From contig DASTZB010000250.1 of NCBI GenBank assembly GCA_035764525.1, forward strand, positions 1 to 59,824: DNA of 59,824 nucleotides. The letters are read 5' to 3'. The notes beneath the pieces are model-generated. The model had not been told where the DNA came from. It searched no databases and was given only the letters and a program-made list of their open reading frames with translations. This document shows positions 1 to 53,866 of the stretch, piece after piece. Positions within the stretch are counted from its first letter, which is position 1. The number at the start of each line of letters is the position of its first letter. This stretch comes from Chitinophagaceae bacterium (lineage in GTDB: Bacteria; Bacteroidota; Bacteroidia; Chitinophagales; Chitinophagaceae). The translations under genes were made by a program, and so were the position numbers.

Positions 1-1463
1 GAATGCTGTAACATTCCTTTTACAATAGTATCAGCTCTTTTACCGTGATGATTTATTTTTTCTTCATTATCTATAACATCCTTCGCAATCGCCTTTACAT
101 CATCATAATTTCCTTTTTCAATTTCACCATTCATTTCTGCAAGTAATTCTTTATTTACATCTGAAAAATTATTGACAAAGTTTAATGGGTTTTGTATCTC
201 ATGTGCAATGCCGGCGGTTAGTTCGCCTAGTGAAGCCATCTTTGCGGATTGTATAAGTTGTGCCTGGGTGGATCTTAGCTCTATCAAAGTTTCTTCCACT
301 TTTTTCTTCTGCATTTCCAAAGCCAGGTTTGCTTTTTGTTTGCTTCGGTTATTCCTATAAAGACCAAACAGTCCCAATAGTAATATGCCTATCCCAGCCA
401 GTAAAGCATATTGCCTAACCCTTCCCCGGTAAGCCTTTTTTTCGTAATCCAATTCGGTCTGTTGTTCCTTTTCTTTAAATACCAGTGCCTGGGCCGATTG
501 CATTTTTTGAATATTGTAAGCACTGTCCTTGGCCGCCTCAGCGATCTTGAGATAACGAAGAGCTTCAGCAGGATCGCCTGGTTCTAATAAGGTTGACAAC
601 AAACCCGCGGGGATATACACTGATGCAAAATGCCGGGGCCGGTACAGCTCATATGCTTTCTTTGCATAATAAATGGCCGAGTCATTTTGTTTGATGTCCC
701 TGAACAAGTAAGCAAGCCCCATATAGCCTTTTGCAATATCTACATCCTCGTTGATTCTTTTCGCTGCAGCTATCCGCTGGAGATAATGTTGCTTTGCAAG
801 TTCTTTATTTCCACTGAACTCATATATCCTTCCCATAGCATGCAGCGCCCCGCCAAGTACGAAGTCGTTTTTCATGCCGATAGCCGAATCATAAGCGATC
901 TTAGCCATATAAAAAGCGGAGTCTGATTTCTTCATGCTCAAATAAGTGTTAGAAAGCCAGATATACGATATAGTGTGAAAGAAAGGATGCACACCTTGCG
1001 ATGATACCTGGTTACTCCTTTGGAAACAATTGAAGGCTTCCTGTGTATTTCCTAATGTAAGATGAACAGTACCCAGCCTTATTAAACAACCGGCCTCGTA
1101 ATCTTTGAAACGATACTTCCTGGTAATGTCCAATGCATTCTGGCCTGTTTCCAGAGCCTTGGGAAAATCAATCCCGTTAAATTGGAAATAATGGCAAAGA
1201 ACAAAGTAGGCCCGCATCTCCCCGAACGGGAAATTGATACTACGTGAAAGTTGCAGTGCCAGGTCTGCAAAATACAAGGTGGAATCCGGCTTTGCTGCCC
1301 GGTAAGCTTCGGCAAGCTCGGCCAATATTTTTGCCCGGCTGGTATCCTGTTTAGCCCGAGCCAGTTCTTGTCTTAAACTATCAGCTTGCCGTATGTTGAC
1401 AGTCTGCGAAAATGTCATGCCTACGATAAACAAAGTAGCGCAAATTAGAATGGTTCTCTTCAT
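1..1463 (-). CDS. TPR-domain sensor histidine kinase; 3' end cut by the window edge (about 487 N-terminal codons present)
   Basis: Absent from the ORF track because no stop codon lies in the window. Hand translation of the minus strand from ATG at 1463-1461 gives [20 protein letters not shown] (signal peptide), then a TPR-like region. A TM segment follows, ending ...[15 protein letters not shown]. Then comes [39 protein letters not shown]...[16 protein letters not shown], which runs off position 3. The frame was checked codon by codon at both ends. Confidence 0.8.
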
Positions 1464-1527
1464 AATTTTTTTCTATCCTATGATTATTCTTAATCATTGT
1501 TGTCATCATTTCAATTTGCCTCACTTA

Positions 1528-3450
1528 TCAAAAAGGCAAGGAGATAATAAATTCGGATCCCCTGCCCTCCAGAGTTTCTACCTTCAACTCCCCACCATGT
1601 GCTTTTACAATATCATAAGCTAATGATAAACCCAAACCGGTACCTTGTCCTGTGGGCTTTGTTGTAAAGAAGGGTTGAAATATTTTATCCAATACTTTTT
1701 GTGGAATGCCATTACCATTATCACTCACTTTTATTTCAACCTTACCGTTATCCTTTTTTGTACTTAACGAAACAATCGGTTCATAACTATTTTGGTTCAT
1801 TTTCTTTTTTTCATCAACCGCATAAAAAGCATTGTTGATCAAATTGAGAATCACTCTTCCAATTTCCTGTGGCACTACATTTATTTTCCCCATCAATAAA
1901 TCAAAATCTGTTTTTGTATTAACATTAAACGATTTGTCTCTTGCCCGAAGACCATGATAAGCTAATCTTAAATATTCGTCTGCTAATGCATTAATATCTG
2001 TTGGCTCCTTTACACCGCTGCTACTGCGGCTGTGTTGCAGCATGCCTTTTACAATGGCATCGGCTCTTTTGCCATGATGATTTATTTTCTGCTCATTTTC
2101 TTTTAGGTCATTCAAAATTGTTTTAGCCTCTTTCGTATTCCCTTTATCTATTTCCTGTTTTGCTTCATCAATCAATTCTGTATTTACATCAGAAAAGTTA
2201 TTGACAAAATTCAATGGGTTTTGAATCTCGTGTGCAATGCCTGCAGTAAGTTCTCCAAGTGAAGCCATTTTTTCTGATTGAATCAGCTGGGTCTGGGTTG
2301 ATCTTAATTCTGATAGTGTTTTTTCCAGAACCTTATTGACCTTATTTTTCTGCTGGTTATTTCTCAACAAGATGCCTGCAATTATTAAAAGAACAAGAAG
2401 GCCACCCAGCAGCAAGTACATTCTTAACCGGTTTTGATATTGTTTTTCCGCTGCTTCAATTTCTTTCTGTTTCTCCTGTTCTTTAAAACCAAGGTTTTGA
2501 ATTGCCATCGTTTTTTCCCGGCTAAATAGACTATCCTTTACATTAAGTGCGATCCTTAAATATTTTAATGAGCTGTCTGCCTTATGTTGCGATCCATAAA
2601 TATCTGCAAGCAAATTGGAGGCTCTTAGCAAACCAAGCGGGTACCTTCTTTCTATTTTTTCTGATAGCACTTCTTTTGAATACCAGGCAGCAGAGTCTAA
2701 ATTATTCGTTGCTTTGTACACATCGGCAATTCCATTATAATTATCAATCAGATCTGTTTCTATATGATTTTTTAGTGAAACGGAAATACCATGCCGGTAA
2801 AGAACCAGCGCTGAATCATAATTAGCCTTACTAGTATAGGCATCTCCTAAAATACTAAGTATGTTCCCTTCTCCTGTAGCCTTAAATTGTTCGTATGCTT
2901 TTTTTGCATATAGCAAGGCTGAATCTGGCTCATTTAACTTGTAATACCCCATCGAGAGATCTCTCCATCCGTAAGGCAACTCCGAAGGTGTTGCTAATTT
3001 GATAGCTTCATCTGTATATTTCAAAAAAGTAGTATACTCACCGAGGTAATAATAAGAGTAAGATACAAGGCTGATTGCCCAAGGTATCGCCGAAGGGTCG
3101 ATCTTTTTAGCAAGCGATAATGTTTTAAATGCGTAGTCTAATCCCAGCGGGTAATTCCCTGCGTTTTGTAAGGAAATCGACAGGATCCCCTCTGAGAAAA
3201 GAATTCCATTTTCATAATTCAACTTTTCTGACAATTGCAAAGCCTGTTGTCCATAGGTTATTGCTGTATCTGCATGATAGACCGAATACAAATTGCATAA
3301 CGTAGCAAGTATTTCTACTTTATTGGTATCCTCTTTTGCAATAGTTAATTCGTGTTTCAAACTATCAATATAGAATTGATTTACTTGCTGTGCTTCAGCA
3401 ACAATTATTGATGAAATTGTTATCAGAATGGCGGCTAAGTTTTTCATCAT
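1528..3450 (-). CDS. Sensor histidine kinase (signal peptide, TPR, TM, DHp/HATPase)
   Basis: 640 aa ORF. Signal peptide MMKNLAAILITISSIIVAEAQ, then TPR-like repeats. TM helix MYLLLGGLLVLLIIAGILL followed by RNNQQK. H-box [28 protein letters not shown]-box LNLINNAFYAV, G1 DNGNGIP, G2 GQGTGLGLS. Confidence 0.92.
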   Translation of the reverse strand: MMKNLAAILITISSIIVAEAQQVNQFYIDSLKHELTIAKEDTNKVEILATLCNLYSVYHADTAITYGQQALQLSEKLNYENGILFSEGILSISLQNAGNYPLGLDYAFKTLSLAKKIDPSAIPWAISLVSYSYYYLGEYTTFLKYTDEAIKLATPSELPYGWRDLSMGYYKLNEPDSALLYAKKAYEQFKATGEGNILSILGDAYTSKANYDSALVLYRHGISVSLKNHIETDLIDNYNGIADVYKATNNLDSAAWYSKEVLSEKIERRYPLGLLRASNLLADIYGSQHKADSSLKYLRIALNVKDSLFSREKTMAIQNLGFKEQEKQKEIEAAEKQYQNRLRMYLLLGGLLVLLIIAGILLRNNQQKNKVNKVLEKTLSELRSTQTQLIQSEKMASLGELTAGIAHEIQNPLNFVNNFSDVNTELIDEAKQEIDKGNTKEAKTILNDLKENEQKINHHGKRADAIVKGMLQHSRSSSGVKEPTDINALADEYLRLAYHGLRARDKSFNVNTKTDFDLLMGKINVVPQEIGRVILNLINNAFYAVDEKKKMNQNSYEPIVSLSTKKDNGKVEIKVSDNGNGIPQKVLDKIFQPFFTTKPTGQGTGLGLSLAYDIVKAHGGELKVETLEGRGSEFIISLPF

Positions 3451-3471
3451 TGTAAATTATATATTACTCTT

Positions 3472-5466
3472 TCAGGACAATCTAATTATAAACTCACTTC
3501 CATCACCTTCTTTCGTTTCAACCTCTAACTCCCCACCATGTGCTTTTACAATATCATACGCCAATGATAAACCCAAACCCGTTCCCTGCCCCGTGGGTTT
3601 GGTTGTAAAGAAAGGCTGAAAGATTTTATCCAATACTTTTTGAGGAATACCGTTGCCATTATCCCCCACTTGTATTTCGACTTTACCATTTGCCTTTTTA
3701 GTACTTACTGAAACTGTTGGCTCATAACCATCGACTACCTGTTTCTTCTTTTCATCAACTGCATAAAATGCGTTGTTGATCAAATTGAGAATAACGCGGC
3801 CAATATCCTGAGGGATGATATTGATTTTTCCAATCGAATCATCAAGATCCGTTTTGATAATCGCCTTGAAAGATTTGTCTTTTGCCCGCATGCCATGATA
3901 AGCCAGTCTTAGATATTCATCAGTCAATGCATTGATATCTGTTGGTTCCTTTTGTCCACTGCTTGTTCTTGAATGTTGCAGCATTCCCTTAACTATGGAA
4001 TCGGCCCTCCTTCCGTGATGATTTATCTTTTCCGAATTGAATGCAATATCATTGGCAATTGCTTTTACTTCTTCCAAATTTCCTTTTTCTGCTTCAGTTT
4101 TTAATTCTTTAAGCAATTCATCATTAACTTCCGAAAAATTATTCACGAAGTTTAATGGATTTTGGATTTCATGTGCAATGCCTGCCGTAAGCTCTCCAAG
4201 AGAAGCCATTTTTGCTGATTGGATGAGTTGGGATTGGGCGGCTTTAAGTTCATCTAAGGTTTGCTCGACTTTTGCTTTTTGGCTATCAGTTTCTTTTTTT
4301 TGTTCCTGGAGTAAAGCATAGGCTTTTTTCCTGTTAACATTATTACGCCAAAGAATAACACCCAGCGCTAAAAAAACAACTGCTGCCGCCAGCAAGCCAT
4401 AGATTTTTACCCGGCTTTTATACTGTGCCTGGGCATTCTCCACTTCCTGTTCCTCGAAATCCAGGTTGAATTTATAGCTTGATATCTGCCGCTGTTTTTC
4501 CTGGTTGTACAGCGTGTCTCTTGCGATCATTGTCTGTTTGTAATAATATAACGCACTATCTGTATTATAAGATTCATAGATCTTTGATAATAGCACATTG
4601 GCTTCCAGTATTTCCATGGCAAAATTTTTAGATCGGGAAACACCCAATGATTTGTGTAAATAAAAAATGGCCGAGTCTCTTCGGCTCATATCGTCGAAAA
4701 CGGCGGCGATATAATTATAGGCTACGGCCAAACCTTTTAAAGTTTGTTTTACTTGCTGGAAACGCTGAATGCTTTGCCGGAAAAAATATAAAGCAGAATC
4801 ATAGTTTTTCAATTCTGTCTGGATTCGGCCCGCTAGTGCAAAACCAGCAGCGTTAACACCTTCCAGTTTCGGGAACGGTGGATAGGAGAATGCAATATGT
4901 ATGTACTTTTGTGCGGAATCCAATTGGTGCTTTTCCAGGTAAATAGAAGCAAGACCGGTATAAATCGCTCTACAAGTCCAGCAAGGCTTCTGCGGGAAAC
5001 GGCGCATGTACTGCTCCCTCAAACCAATGGACTTATTTACATACTTCAATGCTTCTTCATAGTCACCCTGGTCCCTGTAAGTACCGCCCAGTTCTGCATA
5101 ATATTTCCCCTTTAGCTCGATGTCATTTGATGCATCAACATAGTTTATATTAGATAAAAGCAATTTAATGGCAGTTGAATAATCACCTTTTGTACGCCAC
5201 GCTACTGCTAAGCTGGTGGATTGTTCAACTTCGCCTTTCAAAAAATGAATTTGCCTTGCCAATTTCAGTCCTTCCTGGGCTAAAGGAATAGCCGAATCGG
5301 GATCAGACCTTGCAAGTTCATTAGTCAATTGGGTTGACACCAATATCCGGGTGGTATCTTCCCGCGCAACAGCGAGTAAGTTTCTCAGGCTGTCGATATC
5401 TAGTCCCTGTGCATTGGTTATTATTGTTTCAAAAAGGAGAACTACGATGGTGATGATTTTTTTCAT
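3472..5466 (-). CDS. Sensor histidine kinase (signal peptide, TPR, TM, DHp/HATPase)
   Basis: 664 aa ORF. Signal peptide MKKIITIVVLLFETIITNAQG, then TPR-like repeats. TM helix IYGLLAAAVVFLALGVILW-RNN. Same H, N, G1 and G2 boxes as the neighbours. Its ATG overlaps the upstream gene's stop (ATGA at 5463-5466). Confidence 0.92.
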   Translation of the reverse strand: MKKIITIVVLLFETIITNAQGLDIDSLRNLLAVAREDTTRILVSTQLTNELARSDPDSAIPLAQEGLKLARQIHFLKGEVEQSTSLAVAWRTKGDYSTAIKLLLSNINYVDASNDIELKGKYYAELGGTYRDQGDYEEALKYVNKSIGLREQYMRRFPQKPCWTCRAIYTGLASIYLEKHQLDSAQKYIHIAFSYPPFPKLEGVNAAGFALAGRIQTELKNYDSALYFFRQSIQRFQQVKQTLKGLAVAYNYIAAVFDDMSRRDSAIFYLHKSLGVSRSKNFAMEILEANVLLSKIYESYNTDSALYYYKQTMIARDTLYNQEKQRQISSYKFNLDFEEQEVENAQAQYKSRVKIYGLLAAAVVFLALGVILWRNNVNRKKAYALLQEQKKETDSQKAKVEQTLDELKAAQSQLIQSAKMASLGELTAGIAHEIQNPLNFVNNFSEVNDELLKELKTEAEKGNLEEVKAIANDIAFNSEKINHHGRRADSIVKGMLQHSRTSSGQKEPTDINALTDEYLRLAYHGMRAKDKSFKAIIKTDLDDSIGKINIIPQDIGRVILNLINNAFYAVDEKKKQVVDGYEPTVSVSTKKANGKVEIQVGDNGNGIPQKVLDKIFQPFFTTKPTGQGTGLGLSLAYDIVKAHGGELEVETKEGDGSEFIIRLS

Positions 5467-7400
5467 TCGTTTACCTTGGCTTTGTTATTTGGTAGATTGA
5501 TAATAAATTCCGCACCTTCTCCTTTTTTCGTTTCTACTTTCAACTCGCCACCATGTGCTTTTACAATATCATAACTCAATGATAGACCCAACCCTGTTCC
5601 CTGTCCAGCTGGTTTTGTGGTAAAGAAGGGTTGAAATATTTTATCCAATATTTTTTGTGGAATACCGGTGCCGTTATCTGCAACTTTTATTTCAACCTTA
5701 CCAGTTATTTTTTTTGTACTTATTGAGATAGTCGGTTCGTAATTCTCAATTCCCGATTTCCTTTTTTCATCCACTGCATAAAAAGCATTGTTGATCAAAT
5801 TGAGAATGACTCTCCCAATATCCTGAGGAATGATATTGATTTTTCCAGCGCTATCATCAAAATCAGTTTTAATATCAGCTTTAAACGATCGGTCTTTTGC
5901 TTTTGATCCATGATGCGCAAGACGTAAATATTCATCAGCCAGTGCATTGATATCAGTAAGTTCTTTTTGCCCGCTGCTTGTTCTTGAGTGTTGCAGCATT
6001 CCTTTTACGATGGCATCGGCTCTTTTACCATGGTGATTTATTTTCTGCTCATTTTCCTGGATATCATTTAAGATAGCTTTTGCCTCACTTGTATTTCCTT
6101 TATCTATTTCCTGTTTAGCTTCATCAATCAATTCTGTATTCACATCAGAAAAATTGTTGACAAAGTTTAGCGGATTTTGAATCTCATGCGCAATACCCGC
6201 AGTGAGTTCACCAAGGCTCGCCATTTTTTCTGATTGGATTAGTTGCGCCTGTGTAGATTTTAAATCTGTGTATGCCTTTTCAATTTTGGTTTTTGCTTTT
6301 TGTTTCTGCCTGTTATTCCGGAAAAGTATTATCGCAACGATCAAAAAGAAACCCACTGTGGTAATTAAAGCAAGTGATTTCGTTTTATTTTTATACCGTT
6401 CCTTCTCTTGCAGCACTTCCTGCTGCCGCTTCTGTTCTTTCAGCGTCAAAAGCTGTAGTTGCCTGAGTTTATTCGGACCATATAAACTGTCATTCATGTC
6501 GATCGAAATGTCCTGGTAATAAATAACACTATCAGGCATGCCGCTGTTCCTGAACAATTTTCCCAGCAGGTTGCTGGCACTGAGTATTTGTTTTTTGAGA
6601 TAAGATTGTTTGCCACTTGCAAATGCGAGACGAGCATAATACAAACTCGAGTCCATTTTATTTAATGCAAAGAATGATTCAGCCATCAGATGCTGAACAA
6701 TACTTGGCATAGCAACAGATTTAAGCGCCTTTTGATAAACTTGCAAAGCCTCTTCATATTTTCCTGAGTGGGCATATGCCGTTCCAAGTCTTCCAAAAAT
6801 CAAACCCTGTAAAGGAACATGATTAAACTCAACCGATTTTGTCAATGCCTGTTGCTGAAAAAATAAGGCCGAGTCCAACAGCTTCATTCCTTCATAAGCA
6901 CTTCCAAGGTTAGACAAATTGAAAGTGCTGTAAAACGGATCCGAAAAACTTTCGTACAATACTTTTGACTCGTTCAGATAATTTAATGCCTGTCTGTATT
7001 CATTCAGATCTATATAGACAAATCCAATATAACTCAAGGTCAGCGCCTCTCCCTTTTTATCTCCTTTGCTTTTGTTTATTTCAAGAGCCCGGAAATGCAT
7101 TTCTAAAGACTGGGGATAATCGCCGAGAAAATGAAATGCTTCACCAGCCATGTTTAATGCAACTAATTCACCACTACTGAATTTCAGTTGGTGTGCCAGC
7201 TCAATAGCTTCGCTACTTAACAGGAGACATGAATCCGGTTTCGTAAAGAAATAGGACTGCGCTCGCTGGAGAAGTCGATTTACCTGGTTAGTATCTGGAT
7301 TTTGCGATAAATTTTTCGCATTCCCGGTTTGCTGTCCCTGACTGACAGACACTCCCATTATTGACAACGCAAACAAGAGATTTATGTACAATGACCTCAT
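5463..7400 (-). CDS. Sensor histidine kinase (signal peptide, TPR, TM, DHp/HATPase)
   Basis: 645 aa ORF. N-terminal signal peptide, then a TPR-like region. TM helix LALITTVGFFLIVAIILF-RNNRQKQKA. H-box [25 protein letters not shown], followed by a HATPase_c domain with DNGTGIP and GQGTGLGLS. Confidence 0.92.
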   Translation of the reverse strand: MRSLYINLLFALSIMGVSVSQGQQTGNAKNLSQNPDTNQVNRLLQRAQSYFFTKPDSCLLLSSEAIELAHQLKFSSGELVALNMAGEAFHFLGDYPQSLEMHFRALEINKSKGDKKGEALTLSYIGFVYIDLNEYRQALNYLNESKVLYESFSDPFYSTFNLSNLGSAYEGMKLLDSALFFQQQALTKSVEFNHVPLQGLIFGRLGTAYAHSGKYEEALQVYQKALKSVAMPSIVQHLMAESFFALNKMDSSLYYARLAFASGKQSYLKKQILSASNLLGKLFRNSGMPDSVIYYQDISIDMNDSLYGPNKLRQLQLLTLKEQKRQQEVLQEKERYKNKTKSLALITTVGFFLIVAIILFRNNRQKQKAKTKIEKAYTDLKSTQAQLIQSEKMASLGELTAGIAHEIQNPLNFVNNFSDVNTELIDEAKQEIDKGNTSEAKAILNDIQENEQKINHHGKRADAIVKGMLQHSRTSSGQKELTDINALADEYLRLAHHGSKAKDRSFKADIKTDFDDSAGKINIIPQDIGRVILNLINNAFYAVDEKRKSGIENYEPTISISTKKITGKVEIKVADNGTGIPQKILDKIFQPFFTTKPAGQGTGLGLSLSYDIVKAHGGELKVETKKGEGAEFIINLPNNKAKVNE

Positions 7401-7411
7401 TGCATAATAAT

Positions 7412-9424
7412 TTAATTGACTGGTAACTGAATAATAAATTTACTCCCTTCGCCTTCCTTCGTTTCAACTTTCAATTCACCACCGTGTGCTTTTACAATAT
7501 CATAACTCAATGATAAACCCAATCCCGTTCCCTGTCCGGTTGGCTTAGTAGTAAAGAATGGTTGAAATATTTTATCCAATAGTTTTTGAGGAATACCATT
7601 ACCATTGTCACTCACTTTTATTTCAACTTTTTCATTTACTTTTTTTGTACTTACTGAAACTGTTGGTTCGTATCCATCTTGATTCTGTTTCTTTTTTTCA
7701 TCAACCGCATAAAAAGCATTATTGATCAAGTTCAAAACAACTCTTCCAATATCCTGTGGAATGATATTTATTTTTCCAATATCATTATGAAAATCGCTCT
7801 TGATATCCGCATTAAAGGATTTGTCTTTTGCACGAAGGCCATGATAGGCCAATCTTAAATATTCATCTGCTAATTCATTGATGTCAGTTGGTTCCTTACG
7901 TCCACTGCTTGATCTTGAATGCTGAAGCATTCCCTTTACGATCGTATCAGCTCTTTTACCGTGATGAGCTATTTTTTCTGAATTGAATGCAATGTCATTG
8001 GCTATTGTTTTAACTTCTTCAAGATTTCCTTTAGCTGCTTCATTTTTTAAGTCGTTAACCAATTCTTCGTTTACCTCTGAAAAATTGTTGACGAAGTTTA
8101 ACGGGTTTTGAATTTCATGGGCAATGCCGGCCGTGAGCTCACCCAGTGAAGCCATTTTTTCTGATTGGATAAGTTGTTGCTGTGTAGCCTTCAGATCATC
8201 ATAAGCCTGTTCAATTTTTACTTTCGCCTTATGCTTTTGCCTGTTATTTCTATAAAAAATTATTGCAAGCAGTAGCAATACGCCAATACCCGCAATTAAC
8301 AAATATGTTCTGACCTTATTTTGAAAAGCAATTTTATCTTTTTCTGCTTCCCTCAAACGGATCTGTTCACTGAAATTGAGATTTTGAAATTCAGTAAGAT
8401 TTTTGATTCTTACCTGGTTCAAACTGTCTTTCGTTACAAGTGCAAGACCCTGGTATTTAAAAGCGCTGTCAAATTGGTTATTGAGTTTATAGCTTAAACA
8501 CACGTATTCATAGGCGATCCCCATGTTGGTTTCCGTTCCTGCAACAGCTCCCATTAATTGAATGGCGGCAAGATTTTGTTTTGAATAATATAAAGCTAAA
8601 TCCTTATTTCCTTCGGTAAGGTGATACCGGGAAAGTCGTAAATAGATCCTGCTTCTGACTCCAAGATTGTTCCATTTGATCGCAGCCGCTAACCCATTGT
8701 AATAATATTGCAGTGCCAGTGCCGGCTGGCCGGTTGCCATATAGATATCTCCCAGTGTCATCTTAATATGACCAGAATATTTTTCAAACTGCGATTGTGA
8801 TTGAAGCCGGTCGGCTTCTCTTTCATAAAGCAATGCGGAATCATATTTATTTATTGATACGTAAGACTGTCCTAGGTTCATATTGGCAAGTATCATACGC
8901 GGCAAGTAGCCGATCTCGGTGCCGATCTTTCCTGCTTCTTTGAAATGAATAAGTTGTTGTTCAGTGTTTCCTGTTCTTAGCATCAGTATCGCAAATATGT
9001 GATGTGCATAAGATAGAGCCAGTAGCCGGTTACTACCTTTAAATCCTAATAATGATATATCCCAATAGGGTTCTTTTTCTGTCCGAGGATCTTCAGCTAT
9101 AGCAAAAGCCTCTTGTAAACATTTAAGCGCATCTGCGAACCGACCCAATTGAGTCAATTGATATCCTTTGTTTGACAAAGACATGGATTCAGCGGCTTTA
9201 TAATGATTCTTCTGCGCAATTAACAAACCCTGCCCGGCATAGTAAAGCGCAGAATCCCTGTTTGATTCTTCATATTCATTATAAATATCCTTTGCGATCT
9301 TAAATTGGACCTGTCCATCGGTTGAATTCTTCAATGCATTATTTAAACTATCAAGAAGGCTTTGCTGTGCATTCACAATAAATGGAAACAGGATAAGCAG
9401 CAATAGTTTCAAGCAGTATTTCAT
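7412..9424 (-). CDS. Sensor histidine kinase (signal peptide, TPR, TM, DHp/HATPase)
   Basis: 670 aa ORF. Signal peptide MKYCLKLLLLILFPFIVNAQ, then TPR-like repeats. TM helix YLLIAGIGVLLLLAIIFY-RNNRQKHKA. Same kinase cassette as the neighbours. Its ATG overlaps the upstream stop by 1 nt (TAATG at 9422-9426). Confidence 0.92.
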   Translation of the reverse strand: MKYCLKLLLLILFPFIVNAQQSLLDSLNNALKNSTDGQVQFKIAKDIYNEYEESNRDSALYYAGQGLLIAQKNHYKAAESMSLSNKGYQLTQLGRFADALKCLQEAFAIAEDPRTEKEPYWDISLLGFKGSNRLLALSYAHHIFAILMLRTGNTEQQLIHFKEAGKIGTEIGYLPRMILANMNLGQSYVSINKYDSALLYEREADRLQSQSQFEKYSGHIKMTLGDIYMATGQPALALQYYYNGLAAAIKWNNLGVRSRIYLRLSRYHLTEGNKDLALYYSKQNLAAIQLMGAVAGTETNMGIAYEYVCLSYKLNNQFDSAFKYQGLALVTKDSLNQVRIKNLTEFQNLNFSEQIRLREAEKDKIAFQNKVRTYLLIAGIGVLLLLAIIFYRNNRQKHKAKVKIEQAYDDLKATQQQLIQSEKMASLGELTAGIAHEIQNPLNFVNNFSEVNEELVNDLKNEAAKGNLEEVKTIANDIAFNSEKIAHHGKRADTIVKGMLQHSRSSSGRKEPTDINELADEYLRLAYHGLRAKDKSFNADIKSDFHNDIGKINIIPQDIGRVVLNLINNAFYAVDEKKKQNQDGYEPTVSVSTKKVNEKVEIKVSDNGNGIPQKLLDKIFQPFFTTKPTGQGTGLGLSLSYDIVKAHGGELKVETKEGEGSKFIIQLPVN

Positions 9425-11733: not shown

Positions 11734-11763
11734 CGGCGAAAGTTGGTTCGTTAATCATTTTTT

Positions 11764-14433: not shown

Positions 14434-14539
14434 AGTTTTATTTCAATAAATGAATATTTCGTGTTCTCGTAGAGTATAATTAATGAGCCGCTAAGGGGTT
14501 GAAGTTTTCCGGATATTTAAATTAATCAATAAAAAAATC

Positions 14540-23746: not shown

Positions 23747-23747
23747 T

Positions 23748-28406: not shown

Positions 28407-30457
28407 TTTTCGTTGTTTACCGGTAAACTGATGATAAACACAGAGCCTTCTCCTTCCTTCGTTTCTACCTTCAATTCACCACCATGCCCTTTTGTGATTA
28501 TGTCATAGCTTAACGATAAACCGAGACCTGTTCCTTGTCCGGCTGGCTTGGTGGTGAAGAATGGCTGAAATATCTTATCCAATACTTTTTGCGGAATACC
28601 ATTTCCGTTGTCCCTGACACTGATCTCCACTTTATCGGCTGCTTTTTTTGTACTCACAGTAACTATTGGTTCGTAGTTATCTCCTTGCTGTTGCTTCTTT
28701 TCAGAAACAACATAAAATGCATTGGTAATTAAATTCAGGATCACACGGCCGATATCCTGCTGTATCACATTTACTTTTTCAATTGTAGTATCAAATTCAG
28801 ACTTCACATCAACATTAAAAGATTTCTCCTTTGCCTTCATGCCATGGTAAGCAAGCCGCAGATACTCATCAGCCAATACATTAATATCTGTCAATTCTTT
28901 TTTACTCGTGCTGCTTCGTGAATGCTGCAGCATGCTTTTTACAATTGCATCGGCCCTTTTTCCGTGAAAAATTATCTTTTCTTCATTCTCCTTTATGTCT
29001 TTTGCTATTTCTATTGCCTGTTGTTTATTGTCTTTTTCCAGTTCTGTCTCTAATTCGTCGATCAATTCTGCATTTACTTCGGAAAAATTATTGACAAAAT
29101 TCAATGGGTTTTGAATTTCATGTGCAATACCGGCTGTCAATTCACCCAATGAAGCCATCTTTTCGGATTGCACCAATTGATTTTGCGTTGTCTTTAATGT
29201 TGCCAACGTAGTCTCCAGTTCATTTTTCTGTTTTGATAAAAGAATGTTTGCTTTTTTTCGTTGAAGACTGTTACGATATAAAATAATCGCAATGAATAAA
29301 AAAATTGTAAGTCCTGTGATCAATGCATACATCCTGAACTTTACACGATAAGCTTGTTGCGCTGCTTCAATTTGTTGCTGGCGTTGCTGTGCTTCAAAAT
29401 CGATGTTTTGAAATTCCTGCGCATTTTTTGAATTGTAAAGATTATCTTTTATCTTAATGATCAGCGATTGGTATTTTACGGTACTATCATTATTGCCTTT
29501 TATTTTATAAAAATCTGCAAGCGCCGTATAAGAACGCATAAAGAGATCAGGAGAATTTAAATAACTGGCAACAGGCAATCCATTTCGAACGAAGTATAAG
29601 ATCGAATCGATATACCCGGAATTTTTACTAAGTTCTGCCAGGGCGAGATTGCTTGCCACCACACCGCGATAATAAAAATGCTCTTCGCTTTCAGCCAATC
29701 CTCTTCTAAAATATTCTTTTGCTTTTTCAGTATTTCCTTCAGCTACATACACTCTGCCGATATTCAATAAAATGCTCCCGATATACCTGTTATAATTTGC
29801 AATGACAGCATTGTCATAAGCTTTTTGCAAATAGTATAAAGCAGAATCCGGTTGTTTCAATGATAAGTACGTACGACCAAGTGTAGCATATGTAATACTT
29901 AACATCCGTGAGTTATTAGTTTGTTCTCCTACCATCAGGGACAGCCTGTAATAAGAAATTGCTTTTTCATAGATCGCAGCATTTTGATACACAATGCCGA
30001 GATATTGCTGTGTCCTGCTCAGTCTTGTGAGTCGTTGCATGCGGGGTGACACCGAACGGTCAGAAAACTCGTCAATAGGTTCTATTGTTGATGGCAACAA
30101 ATTTTTTTCACTTGCGGGATCTTCACCGATAGCAATTGATGAAAGGATGTTTTGTAATGCCCGCGGTTGATTGCCCTTATTCAATAACGCATATCCCATT
30201 TGATTCAATGCAATACTTTCCTCAAGTTTTAGATGCAATTTCTTTGTAATAGCCTGCATTTTTTCGGCATAGTAGTAAGCACTGTCAGGGTCGATCTCAG
30301 AATAGATATCAGCTGTTTTTCCGTAAAGGATCATGCAGACCGTATCATTTTTACACTTGCTGATCGAATTTTTAAGACTGTCAATATATGATTGTTGTGC
30401 AACAATAAAGTTTGCAAGAAAAAGATAAAACACTATATGGATAATCCGTCTTGTCAT
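28403..30457 (-). CDS. Sensor histidine kinase (signal peptide, TPR, TM, DHp/HATPase)
   Basis: 684 aa ORF. Signal peptide-like N-terminus (IVFYLFLANFIVAQ), then TPR-like repeats. TM helix MYALITGLTIFLFIAIILY-RNS. Carries the H-box and the DIITKGHGGELKVET variant. Its stop overlaps the next gene's ATG (ATGA at 28403-28406). Confidence 0.92.
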   Translation of the reverse strand: MTRRIIHIVFYLFLANFIVAQQSYIDSLKNSISKCKNDTVCMILYGKTADIYSEIDPDSAYYYAEKMQAITKKLHLKLEESIALNQMGYALLNKGNQPRALQNILSSIAIGEDPASEKNLLPSTIEPIDEFSDRSVSPRMQRLTRLSRTQQYLGIVYQNAAIYEKAISYYRLSLMVGEQTNNSRMLSITYATLGRTYLSLKQPDSALYYLQKAYDNAVIANYNRYIGSILLNIGRVYVAEGNTEKAKEYFRRGLAESEEHFYYRGVVASNLALAELSKNSGYIDSILYFVRNGLPVASYLNSPDLFMRSYTALADFYKIKGNNDSTVKYQSLIIKIKDNLYNSKNAQEFQNIDFEAQQRQQQIEAAQQAYRVKFRMYALITGLTIFLFIAIILYRNSLQRKKANILLSKQKNELETTLATLKTTQNQLVQSEKMASLGELTAGIAHEIQNPLNFVNNFSEVNAELIDELETELEKDNKQQAIEIAKDIKENEEKIIFHGKRADAIVKSMLQHSRSSTSKKELTDINVLADEYLRLAYHGMKAKEKSFNVDVKSEFDTTIEKVNVIQQDIGRVILNLITNAFYVVSEKKQQQGDNYEPIVTVSTKKAADKVEISVRDNGNGIPQKVLDKIFQPFFTTKPAGQGTGLGLSLSYDIITKGHGGELKVETKEGEGSVFIISLPVNNEK

Positions 30458-30468
30458 TTGTATAATAA

Positions 30469-33400
30469 TTATTTCATAGGTAAACTTATTATAAATGATG
30501 ACCCCTCACCTTCTTTAGTTTCTACTTTTATTTCACCATCATGTCCTTTTGTAACAATATCATAACTCAACGATAAGCCTAATCCTGTTCCCTGGCCCGT
30601 CGGCTTGGTGGTATAGAATGGTTGAAATATTTTATCCAAATCTTTTTGGGGAATACCGTTACCATTATCAATTACCCTGATCTCAACAACCCCCAAACCC
30701 CCTAAAGGGGGCTTTACAGCTTTAGTAGTGACGATAACCATTGGCTCATAGCCGTTACCCGTCTTCTTTTTCTTTTCACTTACTGCGTAGAAAGAATTAT
30801 TGATCAGGTTAAGAATCACTCTACCTATTTCCTGCGGAACGATATTTATTTTGGCTATGGATCGGTCAAGATCTGTGTCAAATTTTGCATTAAAGAATTT
30901 ATCCTTTGCTCTTAATCCATGATAAGCAAGCCTGAGATATTCTTCTGCTAATGTATTTATATCTGTCAGCTCTTTTTGTCCCCCGCTGCTTCGGCTATGT
31001 TGTAACATCCCTTTTACAATTGCATCTGCCCGTTTGCCGTGGTGTAAGATCTTTTCTAAATTTTCTTTTACATCGAGTGCAATTTCTTTTGCTCCTTCTG
31101 TATTTCCTTTTTCAAGCTCGGTTTTCATTTCTTCCAATAGCTCATTGCTTACATCAGAAAAATTATTTACAAAGTTCAACGGGTTTTGAATTTCATGTGC
31201 AATACCAGCAGTCAATTCACCAAGAGATGCCATCTTCTCGGATTGTATCAATTGTTTTTGTGTAGCCTGTAATTCTGTAAGTGCATCTTCGGCTCTTTTC
31301 TTTTCTTCTTTTAGTTTTATTAAGTCAGTTCGTGCCTGCGTTAGATCTTTAAAACGTGAATACGCTAAAGAAAAAACGGAAGCTGCTCTTCTCAGCATAC
31401 GCCAACTTTCTTCTGAAATATCACCTGCTGCTGCAGCCCCGATAGCCCCATGCGAAAACTTATACAAATGATAAGTTCTGTCAGGAATCACTTCTCCATA
31501 ATATCCCCGCAAAAGAGCAGAGTTTTCTTCACAGTAACGGATCCATTCCTTCCTGTTAGCTCCCTGCATCACAATGGAGATCTGTTTTTTGGGTGATCGG
31601 TAAAATTGCAACATCTCCCTACCCACCCAGGTATCATTGAGATTGAGTGCAAAATGATCATTCACTAATTTCTTTCCTTCAGCCTTTATATCTTTCAATG
31701 CGTACCAGCATTCAGCTTTTTCAGCACTTTCATCATTAATATAAATACTGCATGTCTCCAATTCTTCCACACCCAGTAATCCCATTTCCACTCTTAATAC
31801 TTCTGCTACCTCTTTTAACTCTTCTGGTTCCTGCATCGCCAATGCTCTTGCCCGAACTCTTTCCAGTGCGGTTTCAATTTTTGCTTCTCTTGCCTGTGCT
31901 TCGGCTTTTTGCAGATCAAGAAAACGGGTATAGGCTCTTTCAAACTCTATTGCAAAACGGCATTGAATATTTTTTTCTTCGTCAGTTGCAGGTTTACAGA
32001 TGCAAATACCAAATGAACCATACTTCATCATGGCATCGTAATAATATACACCTTTAGAAAAAGTATCAAAGACCATTACTCTTTTTGCTTCACCACCTGC
32101 ATTATCGGCAATACGCTGAAATGTATCGAGCCAATTCTGTACTCTTTCCGGCGGTACATAGTTGTCATGAATTTTTACTCCGGCCCGCCATGATATAAGA
32201 CAATCATTAAAATATTGTTCTGCTTCTGCCAACGTATAAGAAGTAAAACTTGTTTTATGATCCGGCCAGGTTATCCAGAATGTATTTTCATTTTTTGCTT
32301 CATCCACCAACCAGAAATAGGAGAACTGCCATTCAATACCTAATTTTCTTAATTGCTCTCCAAAAACCAGTGATGTCTCATTCAGATCCTTTGAATTCGA
32401 CATGGCCATCACCTTTGCTCTCACTTTTTCTAATGCTGCTTCGATCTGTGCATCTCTTGCCTGTGCTTCGGCTTGCTTTAGATCATTGAAACGTGTATAC
32501 GTGAGATCAAAAACTTTTGCAAAACGACTAACAATATCCATTTGCTCTGCAGATAATTCAACAGGGCCTGATGCTTCAAGCAAACCAAAATTGTTGAACG
32601 ATCCGGAAACAATAGTATGCTCGGAATTTAGTATCCCGTTCTTAACAGCATCGGGAAGATGAGACAATTCCGTTTCGTTCAGCAATAATTTATCTATTGT
32701 TTTTTTCTCATCACCTTTCAGATCATACACCCATTTTGGATCTTTTTCCTTCCATCCCTTAATGACCGCTTCATAATAAGAGTGCTGAAGTCTTTTAATA
32801 TAATAACTCTCAGCTGATCTTTTATCTTCTGAATTTGCCATCCATAATCTTGCTGATAATGTATCGTTATCAAATATCCAGATGATACAACGGGCAAGTA
32901 TTAGATCGAGCTTTGTGAGTTCTTCAAATAAAATTTCAACAAGATCATTCAGCTCATCAGAATTTTGCATCGCCATGGCTCTTGCTCTCACTCTTTCCAG
33001 TCCCAATTCAATCTGCGCCTCTCTTGCCTGTGCTTCGGCTTTTTGCAGATCGAGGAAACGGGTATAGGTTCTTTCAAATTCATTAGCAAAGCGGCTGAGG
33101 GTCTTTTTTTCATCTTTCGTTAAATCGGCTGCAGCCATTACACCAAAGCAGCCATATTTCATGAAAGCTTCTACATAATACAAGCCACCCGAAAAATATT
33201 CCGGTTTCAGTTTTTCAACTCCATCAATCAACTCTTGCCATGCAGCAAAATAATTTTCAACAGCAGCAGGTGGTACACGATATGAATAAACAGGCTCATT
33301 GCTTTTCCAGTCAACAAGACATTGTGCTGTGGCAGGCTCGTTTCTGTCAAGCGGATAATTAATGGCCTTACTTTTAAAAACCGTTGAGCCGTTTTTATCT

Positions 33401-35940
33401 TCTCCCCAGGCAGCCCAAAAAATATGACGGTCTTTGTCTTCATCAGGAAGCCATAAAAATGAAAATGCTGAATTGATACCAAGCAATAGCACCTGCTGGT
33501 GAAAGACACGTAAGGTATCATCCAGTTCTTTCGAATGCTGCATGATCATACTTTGCGTACGGGTACGTTCCAGTGCTGTTTCGATCTTTGCTTCTCTTGC
33601 CTGTGCTTCGGCTTTTTGAAGATCAAGAAAACGGGTGTATGCCTGATCAAATACGTTTGCAAATCTTTTAACGATTTGGTTATCCTGATCAGAAAATGAT
33701 TTTTTAGAATAACTGGTAATATGAATACCCGTATTTCTTGCCAGGGCTACCGACATCGTAGCGAGCTCAGCTTCCAATAGAAATTGCTTTTGCTTTTCGG
33801 GAACATATTTAAAATCAGTATTTTCAAAAAGATGATGAAACAGTTCATTCTTTTCATCAAAAGGATAGCATTTTGAAAGCAAGTCACCTCCATTTTCCCT
33901 TATTTTAAACAGGTCGTTGAAATATGAAATGTGGGTATAAGGAACTAATATCTTCGGGTATTGTTGATTTGCCTTGCTTTCAAGCCACCAAATGATATCC
34001 TTTGAGTCTTCTGTAAAAAGAATAATTATGGCTGTATAAAAATCAACATTTAGTTCCTTTAATCGTTCAAAAACTGTATGAACCACTTCCTGCAGCTCAT
34101 CGCTCTTATGCATCGCTAAAGAACGGGAACGAACTTTTTCAACAGCCGCTTCTATTTGTGCTTCTCTTGCCTGGGCTTGTGCTTTTTCAATATCCTGGTA
34201 TCTGCGATACGCTAATTCAAATACATTTCGAAAACGTTTGAACAGGTCGATCTCATTTTCATTTAATGGAACATATGTGGACATACCCAATGCCACAGGT
34301 CCCAATGAATACCAGTAATAATTAAGCGAGTCAGAGGTTTCCAGGTAAGTATCAATAAATACATTAGTTGATCGTTGGTAGTCGAGCCAGTCTTTCACTT
34401 CTTCTCCTTTAAACCCATGTGTCCAAACCTGGTTGGGTCCTTTGAGCATTTGGTTGGCAAATTTTTCTGCTACCGGGTGATTATTATAATCTACCTCTGT
34501 GACCAACAGCTTATCATGCTTTGCATAATATTCATAATTCATGTAAGAGCTCTTCTCTTCATAGAAGATCGCTGTCTGTATATTGCGGATCTTCTTTACA
34601 TCCAGAATCTCCAATTGATCTGAAATGATCTTACACACATCCAGCATATCAGCCGGTTCTTTCATCGCCATGGCGGCAGTACGTACTCTTTCTAATGATC
34701 TTTCTATTTTTAATTCTTCATTTGCTTTTTCGATCTTTTCATTTAGCTCAGTCAATTCTTTATTACGCTGACTTACTACCTCTGCTTTGTGAGAAATTTC
34801 AAGATTGGCAATTTTTTGATTTATACTGTTTTTATGAAGTTCCTTTTCTATTTGAAAATGAGCTTCCAGCTGAACAAGCGATTCTTTAAAATCACCCTTT
34901 TGCTGGTAATACTCATGCAAATTATAATACGTATTGCTCAAGAGGTCCTGTGCCTTTATTTCATCAGCAATTTTCAAGGCGCCGGAAAGCCATTCAAAAA
35001 TTTGATGATCTTCAACATCGTTTCGGTTCTTATACAGATTGGCAAGAAATATTAACACTTCTGCTTCTCCTCTTTTGTCTCCCCTTGCTTTTCTTATTTC
35101 AAGGCTTTCATTCGAAAATTTTGAAGCTTGTTTAATATCACCAGCCTGCTCATATATTTCTGCCAGGTGAAGCAGCGCATTGGCTTCTCCTTTTTTATCA
35201 CCTGAATTTTGACTTATTATCAAACTTTGCTTGCAATAATCAATTGCCTTATCAAGGTCATTAAGTTTAAGATAGGTGAAACCGATATTGTCCAGGCTTC
35301 CTGCTTCTCCCCATTTATCATTAGACTCCTGGCGGATAACAAGACCCCGCTGGTAACAATCCAATGCATGATTATAGTCTCCATTATCAAAATAGATGGA
35401 ACCGATAATATTAGTGGCATATGCTTCCATTAAGATATTCCCCGAGCTTTTCGCAATTGCAAGAGCTTTATATAAATAATCCAGGGCGTTTTCATGATTG
35501 CCAAGATGTTTATAGGTAACTCCTATGTGATAACAACATGTTACCTCAATTTCTAATGAACCTATTTGTTGTATTAAAGCATATCCTTTTAGCAAAAGTT
35601 CTAATGAGGTACCTAAGTTTCCCCAATTACGTTCGATAATTCCTAGGTATTCGTAAACAACCGCCTGGCCCTTAATATCATTTAGGGATTGAAACAAAGA
35701 AAGAGCCTCCCTAAGGAGTGGAGCTGCTTCATCGTTTTTAAACAGCCTGACATTGCCGAATCCTAACGAGCGAAGTCCTTCGGCCAATCCTTTGGTATAA
35801 TTAATGTTTCTTGCCAGTTTTACAGATTCTTCGCTTAGCTGAAAAGCTTTGGGAAAATCGGTGACCCGTGCCTCCCATGCTTGCTGGTTAAGCTCATCAA
35901 TTTTTTCCTTCAGTGATTGTATAGCAATTTCATTACTCAT
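30469..35940 (-). CDS. Giant soluble multi-module sensor histidine kinase (cytoplasmic TPR region, 6 GAF-like modules, DHp/HATPase)
   Basis: 1823 aa ORF with no signal peptide and no TM segment. The first approximately 340 aa are TPR_12-like repeats (GEAGSLDNIGFTYLKLNDLDKAIDYCKQSL, GEANALLHLAEIYEQAGDIKQA). Six connector motifs follow (SLERVRTAAMAM, AVEKVRSRSLAMH, ALERTRTQSMIMQ, GLERVRARAMAMQ, ALEKVRAKVMAMS, ALERVRARALAMQ). The kinase cassette ends the protein. Confidence 0.92.
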   Translation of the reverse strand: MSNEIAIQSLKEKIDELNQQAWEARVTDFPKAFQLSEESVKLARNINYTKGLAEGLRSLGFGNVRLFKNDEAAPLLREALSLFQSLNDIKGQAVVYEYLGIIERNWGNLGTSLELLLKGYALIQQIGSLEIEVTCCYHIGVTYKHLGNHENALDYLYKALAIAKSSGNILMEAYATNIIGSIYFDNGDYNHALDCYQRGLVIRQESNDKWGEAGSLDNIGFTYLKLNDLDKAIDYCKQSLIISQNSGDKKGEANALLHLAEIYEQAGDIKQASKFSNESLEIRKARGDKRGEAEVLIFLANLYKNRNDVEDHQIFEWLSGALKIADEIKAQDLLSNTYYNLHEYYQQKGDFKESLVQLEAHFQIEKELHKNSINQKIANLEISHKAEVVSQRNKELTELNEKIEKANEELKIERSLERVRTAAMAMKEPADMLDVCKIISDQLEILDVKKIRNIQTAIFYEEKSSYMNYEYYAKHDKLLVTEVDYNNHPVAEKFANQMLKGPNQVWTHGFKGEEVKDWLDYQRSTNVFIDTYLETSDSLNYYWYSLGPVALGMSTYVPLNENEIDLFKRFRNVFELAYRRYQDIEKAQAQAREAQIEAAVEKVRSRSLAMHKSDELQEVVHTVFERLKELNVDFYTAIIILFTEDSKDIIWWLESKANQQYPKILVPYTHISYFNDLFKIRENGGDLLSKCYPFDEKNELFHHLFENTDFKYVPEKQKQFLLEAELATMSVALARNTGIHITSYSKKSFSDQDNQIVKRFANVFDQAYTRFLDLQKAEAQAREAKIETALERTRTQSMIMQHSKELDDTLRVFHQQVLLLGINSAFSFLWLPDEDKDRHIFWAAWGEDKNGSTVFKSKAINYPLDRNEPATAQCLVDWKSNEPVYSYRVPPAAVENYFAAWQELIDGVEKLKPEYFSGGLYYVEAFMKYGCFGVMAAADLTKDEKKTLSRFANEFERTYTRFLDLQKAEAQAREAQIELGLERVRARAMAMQNSDELNDLVEILFEELTKLDLILARCIIWIFDNDTLSARLWMANSEDKRSAESYYIKRLQHSYYEAVIKGWKEKDPKWVYDLKGDEKKTIDKLLLNETELSHLPDAVKNGILNSEHTIVSGSFNNFGLLEASGPVELSAEQMDIVSRFAKVFDLTYTRFNDLKQAEAQARDAQIEAALEKVRAKVMAMSNSKDLNETSLVFGEQLRKLGIEWQFSYFWLVDEAKNENTFWITWPDHKTSFTSYTLAEAEQYFNDCLISWRAGVKIHDNYVPPERVQNWLDTFQRIADNAGGEAKRVMVFDTFSKGVYYYDAMMKYGSFGICICKPATDEEKNIQCRFAIEFERAYTRFLDLQKAEAQAREAKIETALERVRARALAMQEPEELKEVAEVLRVEMGLLGVEELETCSIYINDESAEKAECWYALKDIKAEGKKLVNDHFALNLNDTWVGREMLQFYRSPKKQISIVMQGANRKEWIRYCEENSALLRGYYGEVIPDRTYHLYKFSHGAIGAAAAGDISEESWRMLRRAASVFSLAYSRFKDLTQARTDLIKLKEEKKRAEDALTELQATQKQLIQSEKMASLGELTAGIAHEIQNPLNFVNNFSDVSNELLEEMKTELEKGNTEGAKEIALDVKENLEKILHHGKRADAIVKGMLQHSRSSGGQKELTDINTLAEEYLRLAYHGLRAKDKFFNAKFDTDLDRSIAKINIVPQEIGRVILNLINNSFYAVSEKKKKTGNGYEPMVIVTTKAVKPPLGGLGVVEIRVIDNGNGIPQKDLDKIFQPFYTTKPTGQGTGLGLSLSYDIVTKGHDGEIKVETKEGEGSSFIISLPMK
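31340..34760 (-). repeat. In-frame tandem array of 6 protein modules, about 552-573 nt each
   Basis: Connector codons lie near 31860, 32428, 32993, 33566, 34138 and 34690 (approximate). Confidence 0.9.
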
Positions 35941-36141
35941 TTATAAATGAGAACAACAGTTTGTCTCGTTTTGTTTTTACTAGCTGAAATTAATGATTTC
36001 TTAAAGACTTATAAAATAAACAGATACGATGGGACTTAATCGGTTTCCAGTAATTGCATCAGCAAAAAACAGGCAGTAATCTTAACACCAGCCTCTATTT
36101 TATATAAAACTCCCAGGCGATTCCGGTTGGGGTTCTTAAAA

Positions 36142-37719: not shown

Positions 37720-37792
37720 ATATTGAATTGCAAATCTATTTTGTTTATGAATGATGTTTTATGAAGCTGAACCAAAATAAAACTGATAATTA

Positions 37793-38290: not shown

Positions 38291-38330
38291 TCTTATTTAG
38301 ATTTTAGATTGCAGATTTAAGATTTTAGAT

Positions 38331-51421: not shown

Positions 51422-51431
51422 AACAAATAAA

Positions 51432-53435: not shown

Positions 53436-53866
53436 AAAAAGAAAACAAAATGCACCTGTTCCTCGTTGATGATGATGCTTTATTTCTGAAATCCCTGGAA
53501 ATTGAATTTCATCATCATACGGACTTCACTGTTGAAACCTTTGCGACAGGTGAACTTTGCATTGAAAATTTATCGCACAACCCTGATGTAATTATTTTAG
53601 ATTATCATTTGAATGGCATAGATAAAAACGCAATGAATGGTATAGAAACCCTGGATAAAATAAAAGCATTAAAACCGGATATCCCTATTGTAATGTTATC
53701 CTCACAGGACAAAATAGATGTGGCGATCAGTTGCATGCATCACCGTGCTTTTGATTATGTAGTGAAAAGCGAAACGGCTTTCCTTCGTTTGCAAAAAAAT
53801 ATTACTGCCTTTTTTCATTACGAAAAAATAGAAAAAGAATTGAACTGGTATATGGCGAGAATGTAG
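53432..53866 (+). CDS. Single-domain response regulator (REC only)
   Basis: 144 aa ORF. Motifs: LFLVDDD, VIILDYHL (phospho-acceptor Asp context), IVMLSS and FDYVVK. Its ATG overlaps the kinase stop (ATGA). Confidence 0.85.
   Translation: MKKENKMHLFLVDDDALFLKSLEIEFHHHTDFTVETFATGELCIENLSHNPDVIILDYHLNGIDKNAMNGIETLDKIKALKPDIPIVMLSSQDKIDVAISCMHHRAFDYVVKSETAFLRLQKNITAFFHYEKIEKELNWYMARM

Follow-up and report, generated by a model that had tools for sequence, protein, structure and literature searches.

A tandem array of eleven sensor histidine kinases with one transmitter cassette in a Chitinophagaceae contig, and a candidate receiver-adenylate cyclase partner

The stretch of DNA analysed here, hereafter the window, is contig DASTZB010000250.1 of a Chitinophagaceae bacterium (assembly GCA_035764525.1), one entire contig of 59,824 bp, and the subject of this study is the array of histidine kinase genes at its positions 1-35940. 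The open reading frame (ORF) list, a six-frame check and the translations gave 11 successive minus-strand kinase genes, ten of them complete and the first by position, g01 (database copy P0001), cut by the contig end, which falls inside it. A preliminary description of this DNA had reported eleven same-strand kinase genes in 36 kb, and ORF calls and Pfam reproduced them. All carry a transmitter cassette of about 264 amino acids (HisKA plus HATPase_c), partial in g01, that comprises the dimerisation and histidine phosphotransfer (DHp) domain and the catalytic and ATP-binding (CA) domain. The sensors are built from tetratricopeptide repeats (TPR) with a transmembrane (TM) helix or from GAF-like modules, and the genes and the upstream boundary of the array are as follows.

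g01, 1-1463, minus strand: incomplete kinase that opens with a signal peptide and a periplasmic TPR domain, has a single TM helix and keeps the cassette as far as DHp helix 2, the contig breaking off before the CA domain
g02, 1528-3450, minus strand: TPR-TM-cassette kinase, 640 aa; 526 bits with the cassette model
g03, 3472-5466, minus strand: TPR-TM-cassette kinase, 664 aa
g04, 5463-7400, minus strand: TPR-TM-cassette kinase, 645 aa; 4-nt overlap with g03
g05, 7412-9424, minus strand: TPR-TM-cassette kinase, 670 aa
g06, 9424-11733, minus strand: TPR-TM-cassette kinase, 769 aa; 1-nt overlap with g05
g07, 11764-14433, minus strand: TPR-TM-GAF-cassette kinase, 889 aa as listed; Pfam GAF_2 at residues 471-614
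g08, 14540-23797, minus strand: cytoplasmic giant kinase with SnoaL_3, 14 tandem ~190-aa GAF-like modules and the cassette, 3085 aa as listed
g09, 23748-28406, minus strand: cytoplasmic kinase with SnoaL_3, 6 GAF-like modules and the cassette, 1552 aa
g10, 28403-30457, minus strand: TPR-TM-cassette kinase, 684 aa; 4-nt overlap with g09
g11, 30469-35940, minus strand: first array gene, with cytoplasmic TPR, 6 GAF-like modules and the cassette, 1823 aa
Upstream boundary, 35941-37738, minus strand: 201-nt gap, ATP-grasp gene (36142-37719) and the nearest coding-strand TAnnTTTG box (37731-37738); no receiver gene in this interval

Two of the junctions are 4-nt overlaps (5463-5466 and 28403-28406), one is a 1-nt overlap (9424) and one has the form TAGAATG (23744-23750), while the remaining gaps measure 11, 11, 21, 30, 64 and 106 nt, the last of these at 14434-14539; every junction quoted in the preliminary description was recovered from the gene coordinates. 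For g08, the ATG at 23746 (3068 aa), also chosen earlier, is likelier to be the start than the longest-ORF start at 23797, because the resulting N-terminus aligns with that of g09, and g07 likelier begins at the ATG at 14427 than at the listed 14433. The contig breaks within the repeated cassette of g01 (window 1-300), which may reflect an assembly break in a repeated or strain-variable region, and for this reason the full array probably has more than 11 genes.

Pfam placed HisKA and HATPase_c at the C-terminus of all ten complete genes and HisKA in the cut g01. With a hidden Markov model (HMM) of the cassette, the array genes scored 504-534 bits versus 41 bits for an unrelated hybrid kinase at 51432-53435, and the cassette also emerged as an 11-copy DNA repeat (repeat family D2). 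The H, N, G1, F and G2 boxes were invariant or nearly so across the array, with the motifs [12 protein letters not shown](N/T)N, DNG.GIP, FQPF(F/Y)TTK and GTGLGLS, and on these domains and boxes we assign the proteins to the class I (HisKA-type) sensor histidine kinases, with predicted activity. The block formed by the H-box and helix 1 was invariant in the array ([29 protein letters not shown]) and the start of helix 2 (HHGKRAD.IVK.MLQHSR) was invariant or nearly so, which bears out the earlier remark that the phospho-acceptor and dimerisation helices scarcely vary. The most variable stretch of the cassette flanks a KGN turn. An AlphaFold2 (AF2) model of the cassette monomer, with a pLDDT of 66 for the DHp domain and used solely to place the hairpin turn, puts the KGN region, at low confidence, at the tip of a hairpin formed by two long helices (~35 and ~36 residues), and the hairpin is ~16 residues longer than in ZraS. 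No NCBIfam model attained its cut-off on the array kinases; g02 scored 163 bits with AtoS (NF008468, cut-off 646 bits) and 128 bits with ZraS (NF007688, cut-off 479 bits), the other genes scored similarly, and we take these scores as likeness of the transmitter alone. Pfam found no Response_reg, Hpt or helix-turn-helix (HTH) domain in g01-g11 and a receiver HMM had no match in 1-36 kb, in agreement with the earlier statement that the 36 kb hold no receiver, HPt or DNA-binding output. Rfam and tRNA scans of the window gave no matches.

The preliminary description had called the cassette essentially the same in every gene. It is indeed shared by all 11, with invariant H-box and docking helices, but overall the array cassettes are just 69-86% identical in amino acids (mean 76%) and 72% identical in nucleotides. 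Synonymous sites of cassette pairs were saturated (pS 0.72), nonsynonymous divergence was low (dN 0.18) and the longest exact DNA match shared by any two cassettes was 38 nt, and for these reasons we conclude that the cassettes are old paralogs under purifying selection, neither recent copies nor products of gene conversion. We find it hardly credible that the array is instead an artefact or a recent event, whether an assembly duplication, a recent tandem amplification or ongoing gene conversion. The contig does end within a repeated cassette, and 120-nt windows over the G1-F-G2 boxes reach 87-93% nucleotide identity in several gene pairs, but this local identity falls on the most constrained residues and is common to many pairs rather than to one donor-recipient pair, the mean identity and the saturation speak for age, and independent assemblies contain arrays like this one. 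Gene conversion and recent duplication were thus ruled out by the saturated synonymous sites and the shortness of the exact matches. The 3' ends of g06 and g07 (9464-9648 versus 11798-11982) were 90% identical over 185 nt versus ~73% overall, a likeness that could reflect a subtype or an old local exchange and is no clear case of gene conversion. The variant DIITKGHGGEL, with one residue inserted, was common to g06, g07, g10 and g11.

The sensor portions fall into two classes, periplasmic TPR domains with one TM helix and cytoplasmic stacks of 6-14 GAF-like modules. In g01-g06 and g10, a signal peptide and 330-450 aa of TPR are followed by one TM helix and, about 25 residues after it, by the start of the cassette; g07 has the same layout with an added cytoplasmic GAF domain, and g08, g09 and g11 have no TM helix. 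The sensors had been described as unrelated or only distantly related; unrelated they are not, as they are homologous inside each class (22-31% identity for the TPR class and 33-35% for the cytoplasmic GAF-like class). The tandem repeats of about 190 aa, 14 in g08 and 6 each in g09 and g11, have conserved helical ends and hypervariable cores that are just 20-30% identical. An AF2 model built from 26 repeats (pLDDT 93.4, pTM 0.89) had GAF domains as its best PDB matches (the CyaB2 tandem GAFs 1ykd, 1f5m and phytochromes) at a modest E = 3e-3 and TM-score of ~0.5, and Pfam gave a single weak GAF_2 match among these repeats, in g11; on these modest fold matches we call the modules GAF-like. Giant kinases also occur in relatives (3622 aa at locus L006 and 3377 aa at locus L092), and the giants of the window, with 6-14 hypervariable GAF-like modules, form a separate lead on multi-ligand sensing. 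For the TPR class, precomputed matches to PF28559 (TPR_SusR) exist for g01 (P0001) and many homologs, our own Pfam run having given just generic TPR and a weak DUF6377, and the topology of signal peptide, TPR and TM helix fits a SusR-type sensor. Because of this resemblance to SusR-type sensors, the periplasmic TPR domains may sense glycans. SusR-like membrane regulators are discussed in a preprint (10.64898/2026.01.10.698779).

The cassette belongs to a very large family: of 8,000 candidates scored, over 7,600 had E 1e-30 or better. Its members appear in databases as 'tetratricopeptide repeat-containing sensor histidine kinase' or under the generic name 'NtrC family sensor kinase'. The nearest matches came from Cyclobacteriaceae and Chryseolinea metagenome-assembled genomes, with g01 orthologs 75-79% identical, and by these matches the organism belongs to the Cytophagales (Cyclobacteriaceae/Chryseolinea-like). 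Arrays with the same cassette were found in other Cytophagales, Chitinophagales and Sphingobacteriales. Cassette identity was 75% between arrays of different genomes, the window and L006, versus 76% within each array, and because these values are equal the shared cassette is a property of a Bacteroidota-wide family and not a trait peculiar to the array's 11 genes. Orthology of cassettes between genomes was rejected, as identity stays flat at ~75%, and for the same reason concerted evolution in the window cannot be argued; locus L003 shows some array-specific cassette motifs. The related loci include the following.

L001: four-kinase array
L002: g01 ortholog, solitary
L004: six-kinase array, Sphingobacteriales
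L006/L090: twelve kinases over 24 kb, including the 3622-aa giant; closest relative with a long contig
L092: array including the 3377-aa kinase, on the basis of a Pfam gene table, with no cassette HMM

Relatives also indicate a partner for the cassette. At L003, a DinB gene comes after the g01 ortholog (75% identical), then a Y_Y_Y kinase that also has the cassette, then a receiver of 124 aa and lastly, before a strand switch, a 346-aa protein in which a receiver is fused to a class III cyclase (receiver-cyclase). In three long genomic contexts (L007, L008 and L009), three to five or more co-oriented cassette kinases are followed by the receiver and then the receiver-cyclase; L005, from Sediminibacterium, is alike, and L091/L093 have the same kinase-receiver-cyclase order by Pfam gene tables only, with no cassette HMM. 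A metagenome scan with the receiver-cyclase gave 80 loci, 73 of which have the small receiver beside it. A cassette kinase lay directly upstream of the pair on the same strand in all 55 metagenome loci that were informative (1 kb or more of sequence before the small receiver; kinases at 380-508 bits) and in 5 genome loci. Among the 22 metagenome loci with at least 9 kb upstream, the contiguous kinase run counted one gene in 13 loci, two in one, three in four and four in another four.

Receiver-cyclases from Cyclobacteriaceae, other Cytophagales and Chitinophagaceae share at least 80% identity, and 191 of the 347 columns in an alignment of 119 sequences were at least 98% conserved. The acceptor Asp and cyclase motifs of the protein are intact, its cyclase domain keeping the metal-binding Asp residues, the Lys in IDKFIGD, the Thr in DYTVIGD and the Asn/Arg pair, and its closest solved structures are the adenylate cyclases CyaB (3r5g) and OaPAC. 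The 124-aa receiver and the receiver of the receiver-cyclase are 44% identical. The cyclase's receiver was nearest to NtrC/ZraR receivers and the cassette to ZraS (9jfj) and AtoS, and also to the EspC model; by sequence likeness the kinase and receiver lineages match.

The comparison of docking surfaces covered three sets: the kinases of the window, the 55 that adjoin a receiver, and 41 further array kinases. In all three sets, DHp helix 1 ([31 protein letters not shown]) was ~95% or more conserved at nearly every position, and proximal helix 2 ([18 protein letters not shown]) was mostly 80-95% or more conserved, with few variable positions. These results bear on whether the eleven kinases might be independent systems, each wired to a different unlinked regulator and clustered by tandem duplication alone. 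Orphan kinases with unlinked partners are common, and such an arrangement would suit the highly diverged sensors and the variable tip of the DHp hairpin. Paralogous kinases elsewhere, however, are insulated from one another by changes in their DHp docking residues, and here helix 1 is invariant and the start of helix 2 nearly so in all 11 genes, matching the receiver-adjacent kinases, with saturated synonymous sites and a dN of 0.18 that indicate long-term selection on the docking surface. We regard independent wiring as quite improbable.

The same helices raise the possibility of combinatorial heterodimers, in which near-identical dimerisation surfaces would allow mixed dimers and the kinases themselves would integrate the signals, whether or not they share a regulator. 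In its favour, the proximal DHp does not vary, and adjacent, possibly co-translated genes would favour co-assembly. On the other side, the distal hairpin around the KGN turn is the most variable part and could enforce homodimers (as placed by the low-confidence monomer model), and membrane-bound and cytoplasmic members are unlikely to pair, so that we think mixed assembly rather unlikely.

Taking the evidence together, we consider it probable that the array is a bank of paralogous sensors converging on one receiver/receiver-adenylate cyclase pair, with cyclic AMP (cAMP) as the output. Phosphotransfer to the pair, many-to-one wiring in the window's own genome, the cAMP product and co-transcription of the array are all inferred from sequence. 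The idea of many inputs and one output had been put forward in the preliminary description, and the invariant docking helices fit this predicted convergence. Likewise, the claim that the kinases have no partner holds inside the window, but a partner can be proposed from the conserved linkage to the receiver and receiver-cyclase.

Several observations weigh against this convergence. The receiver HMM found neither a receiver nor a receiver-cyclase gene in 1-36 kb, the contig stops before the array's downstream end is reached, and the link to the partner comes from other genomes. Adjacency pairs at least the neighbouring kinase with the receivers, not every family member, and the cyclase product is read only from motifs and PDB matches, which point to cAMP. 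The linkage of arrays to the pair is also not universal: at L006/L090 another six kinases come after the g01 ortholog (78-79% identical), and then a strand switch to a TonB-type receptor gene, no receiver was found at the end of the 12-kinase array in 10 kb walked downstream, and the receiver-cyclase was absent from the 1.2-Mb contig among the matches listed. Arrays made of kinases alone, as in the preliminary description, therefore do exist. Finally, arrays of the same kind do occur in relatives, as had been proposed for checking, but gene order differs between the window and L006, and what follows g01 cannot be inferred by synteny.

The same loci bear on an ordinary expanded two-component operon, in which the receiver pair would lie at the array's own 3' end and be co-transcribed with it; the mechanism would be the same as in the convergence that we favour, and only the location of the partner would differ. 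A regulator just past the array, which the preliminary description had named as the finding that would make the locus ordinary, is seen at L003, where the g01 ortholog stands two genes upstream of the pair, separated from it by DinB and one more cassette kinase. Arrays of three to five or more kinases end in the pair at L005, L007, L008, L009 and many metagenome loci, and the window itself ends inside g01. Yet the L006/L090 array ends at a strand switch without a receiver, the g01 ortholog of L002 is solitary and gene order is not conserved. We hold this arrangement to be a serious possibility of somewhat less than even probability. In the window's genome, the receiver pair could follow directly after the break of the contig or be encoded elsewhere.

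Each array gene joins a different sensor to the same AtoS/ZraS-like transmitter, HisKA with its long helical hairpin plus HATPase_c. In the convergent network that we favour, every array kinase would autophosphorylate on the invariant His and phosphorylate one receiver pair through the common invariant docking surface. Because they carry an H-E-x-x-N motif, unstimulated kinases would probably dephosphorylate the pair, and many inputs would be summed into one cAMP output that reflects the balance of the kinase inputs. The small 124-aa receiver may act as a sink or as a parallel branch. A broader proposal, that such sensor banks exist throughout the phylum as dozens of bifunctional kinases with one docking surface kept for hundreds of millions of years, often in arrays of at least ten, is one that we put forward tentatively and think doubtful as a whole; it also comprises a single receiver/receiver-cyclase hub for all of them, cAMP that sums TPR and multi-GAF inputs, and a hairpin tip that decides pairing.

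Signals for transcription were also sought. Scans for sigma-70-type promoters and terminators gave counts no higher than in shuffled sequence, the sigma-70 model being wrong for Bacteroidota, and are uninformative as a whole; no terminator-like hairpin lay in a gap of the array. The Bacteroidota -7 box TAnnTTTG was about threefold depleted in the window (28 matches versus 78 expected), and on the coding strand it was absent from all intergenic gaps of the array; clear boxes stand at 37731-37738 (minus strand), upstream of the ATP-grasp gene, and at 38326-38333 (plus strand), upstream of a divergent UPRTase gene. The overlaps, the gaps of at most 106 nt and the absence of this box and of terminator-like hairpins from the gaps fit, weakly, one or a few long transcripts. 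The ATP-grasp gene (36142-37719, minus strand), with an IQCH-like ATP-grasp and a PGM1 C-terminal domain, is the array's direct 5' neighbour and has the same orientation; sitting behind the only nearby canonical promoter box, it may share a transcript with the kinases.

Further observations concern the wider cassette family and the rest of the window. At L003 (7745-9934) and L093 (1-3947), FIST-domain genes lie directly 5' of a short, sensor-less cassette kinase of 348 aa, which suggests a split sensor/kinase pair of the cassette family. In two different organisms, within shuffled arrays, a small SCO4226-like gene stands before cytoplasmic cassette kinases of 662-671 aa that are orthologs of each other, at these sites.

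L006, 19514-19759: SCO4226-like gene
L091, 2922-3248: SCO4226-like gene
L093, 9613-9939: SCO4226-like gene

After the TonB-type receptor gene of L090 come, at 17582-21989, two one-component cyclases, a Reg_prop/Y_Y_Y-Guanylate_cyc protein of 1082 aa and a GAF-Guanylate_cyc protein of 559 aa, and the same sensor types are therefore used both fused to a cyclase and via cassette kinases. In the window itself, a second and unrelated signalling unit occupies 50795-53866 on the plus strand, with an AraC-type HTH protein first (50795-51421), followed by the PAS-HisKA-HATPase-REC hybrid kinase (51432-53435; REC, receiver) and a small ORF that matches a receiver weakly (53432-53866).

Neither many-to-one kinase networks nor receiver-cyclase fusions are new as kinds, and each array gene taken alone is an ordinary sensor kinase. 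Our incomplete coverage of the literature turned up no description of tandem arrays of at least ten kinases with one conserved cassette, nor of a kinase array linked to a receiver/receiver-adenylate cyclase pair. As a rule, kinases and regulators keep their specificity private through docking surfaces that diverge, and a family that does the opposite, with one surface frozen across at least 11 tandem paralogs and across whole orders, would be an extreme of many-to-one signalling. It would also give a testable hypothesis for cAMP control in environmental Bacteroidota, where such signalling is little studied, and it names a candidate partner for the kinases where the preliminary description had left this question open.

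The closest functional parallels are the multikinase networks in which KinA-E feed Spo0F in Bacillus subtilis and LuxN, LuxQ and CqsS feed LuxU in Vibrio. As in those networks, a single receiver is predicted to collect the signals of several kinases that differ in their inputs, and the window kinases, with their H-E-x-x-N motif, are probably bifunctional, so that the output would be the balance of inputs. The window kinases outnumber those of the known networks by far (11 in the array, 12 in that of a relative), stand in tandem and have an invariant docking surface, and their predicted output is neither a transcription factor nor an HPt relay but a nucleotide cyclase, the convergence being a prediction here. 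AtoS and ZraS, NtrB-like kinases that work with NtrC-family receivers, offer the nearest likeness in sequence for the cassette (ZraS 9jfj; the AtoS, EspC and ZraS models), and NtrC-type receivers do so for the cyclase's receiver. The array kinases nevertheless score far below those family cut-offs and have the longer DHp hairpin, and the proposed partner would act through a class III cyclase, not a sigma-54 activator.

Receiver-cyclase fusions are known, for example cyanobacterial CyaC, and the proposed partner resembles them, and CyaB and OaPAC in its catalytic domain, in being a receiver fused to a class III cyclase domain. It differs from CyaC-type fusions in being a minimal REC-cyclase of 346 aa, with ~80% identity across Bacteroidota families, and in being preceded by the single-domain receiver and one or more cassette kinases. 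Within the same phylum, the array can be set beside the hybrid two-component systems (HTCS) of Bacteroidetes, whose Reg_prop/Y_Y_Y sensors are reused by cassette kinases at L003, L007 and L009, and beside the SusR-like TPR membrane regulators, with which window genes share one TM helix and a periplasmic TPR domain of putative SusR type. Unlike HTCS, which unite a Y_Y_Y sensor, kinase, receiver and AraC-type HTH in one protein, the window kinases have neither Response_reg nor HTH_18, and their transmitter cassette is of a different type, as reflected in the low cassette score of the window's own hybrid kinase.

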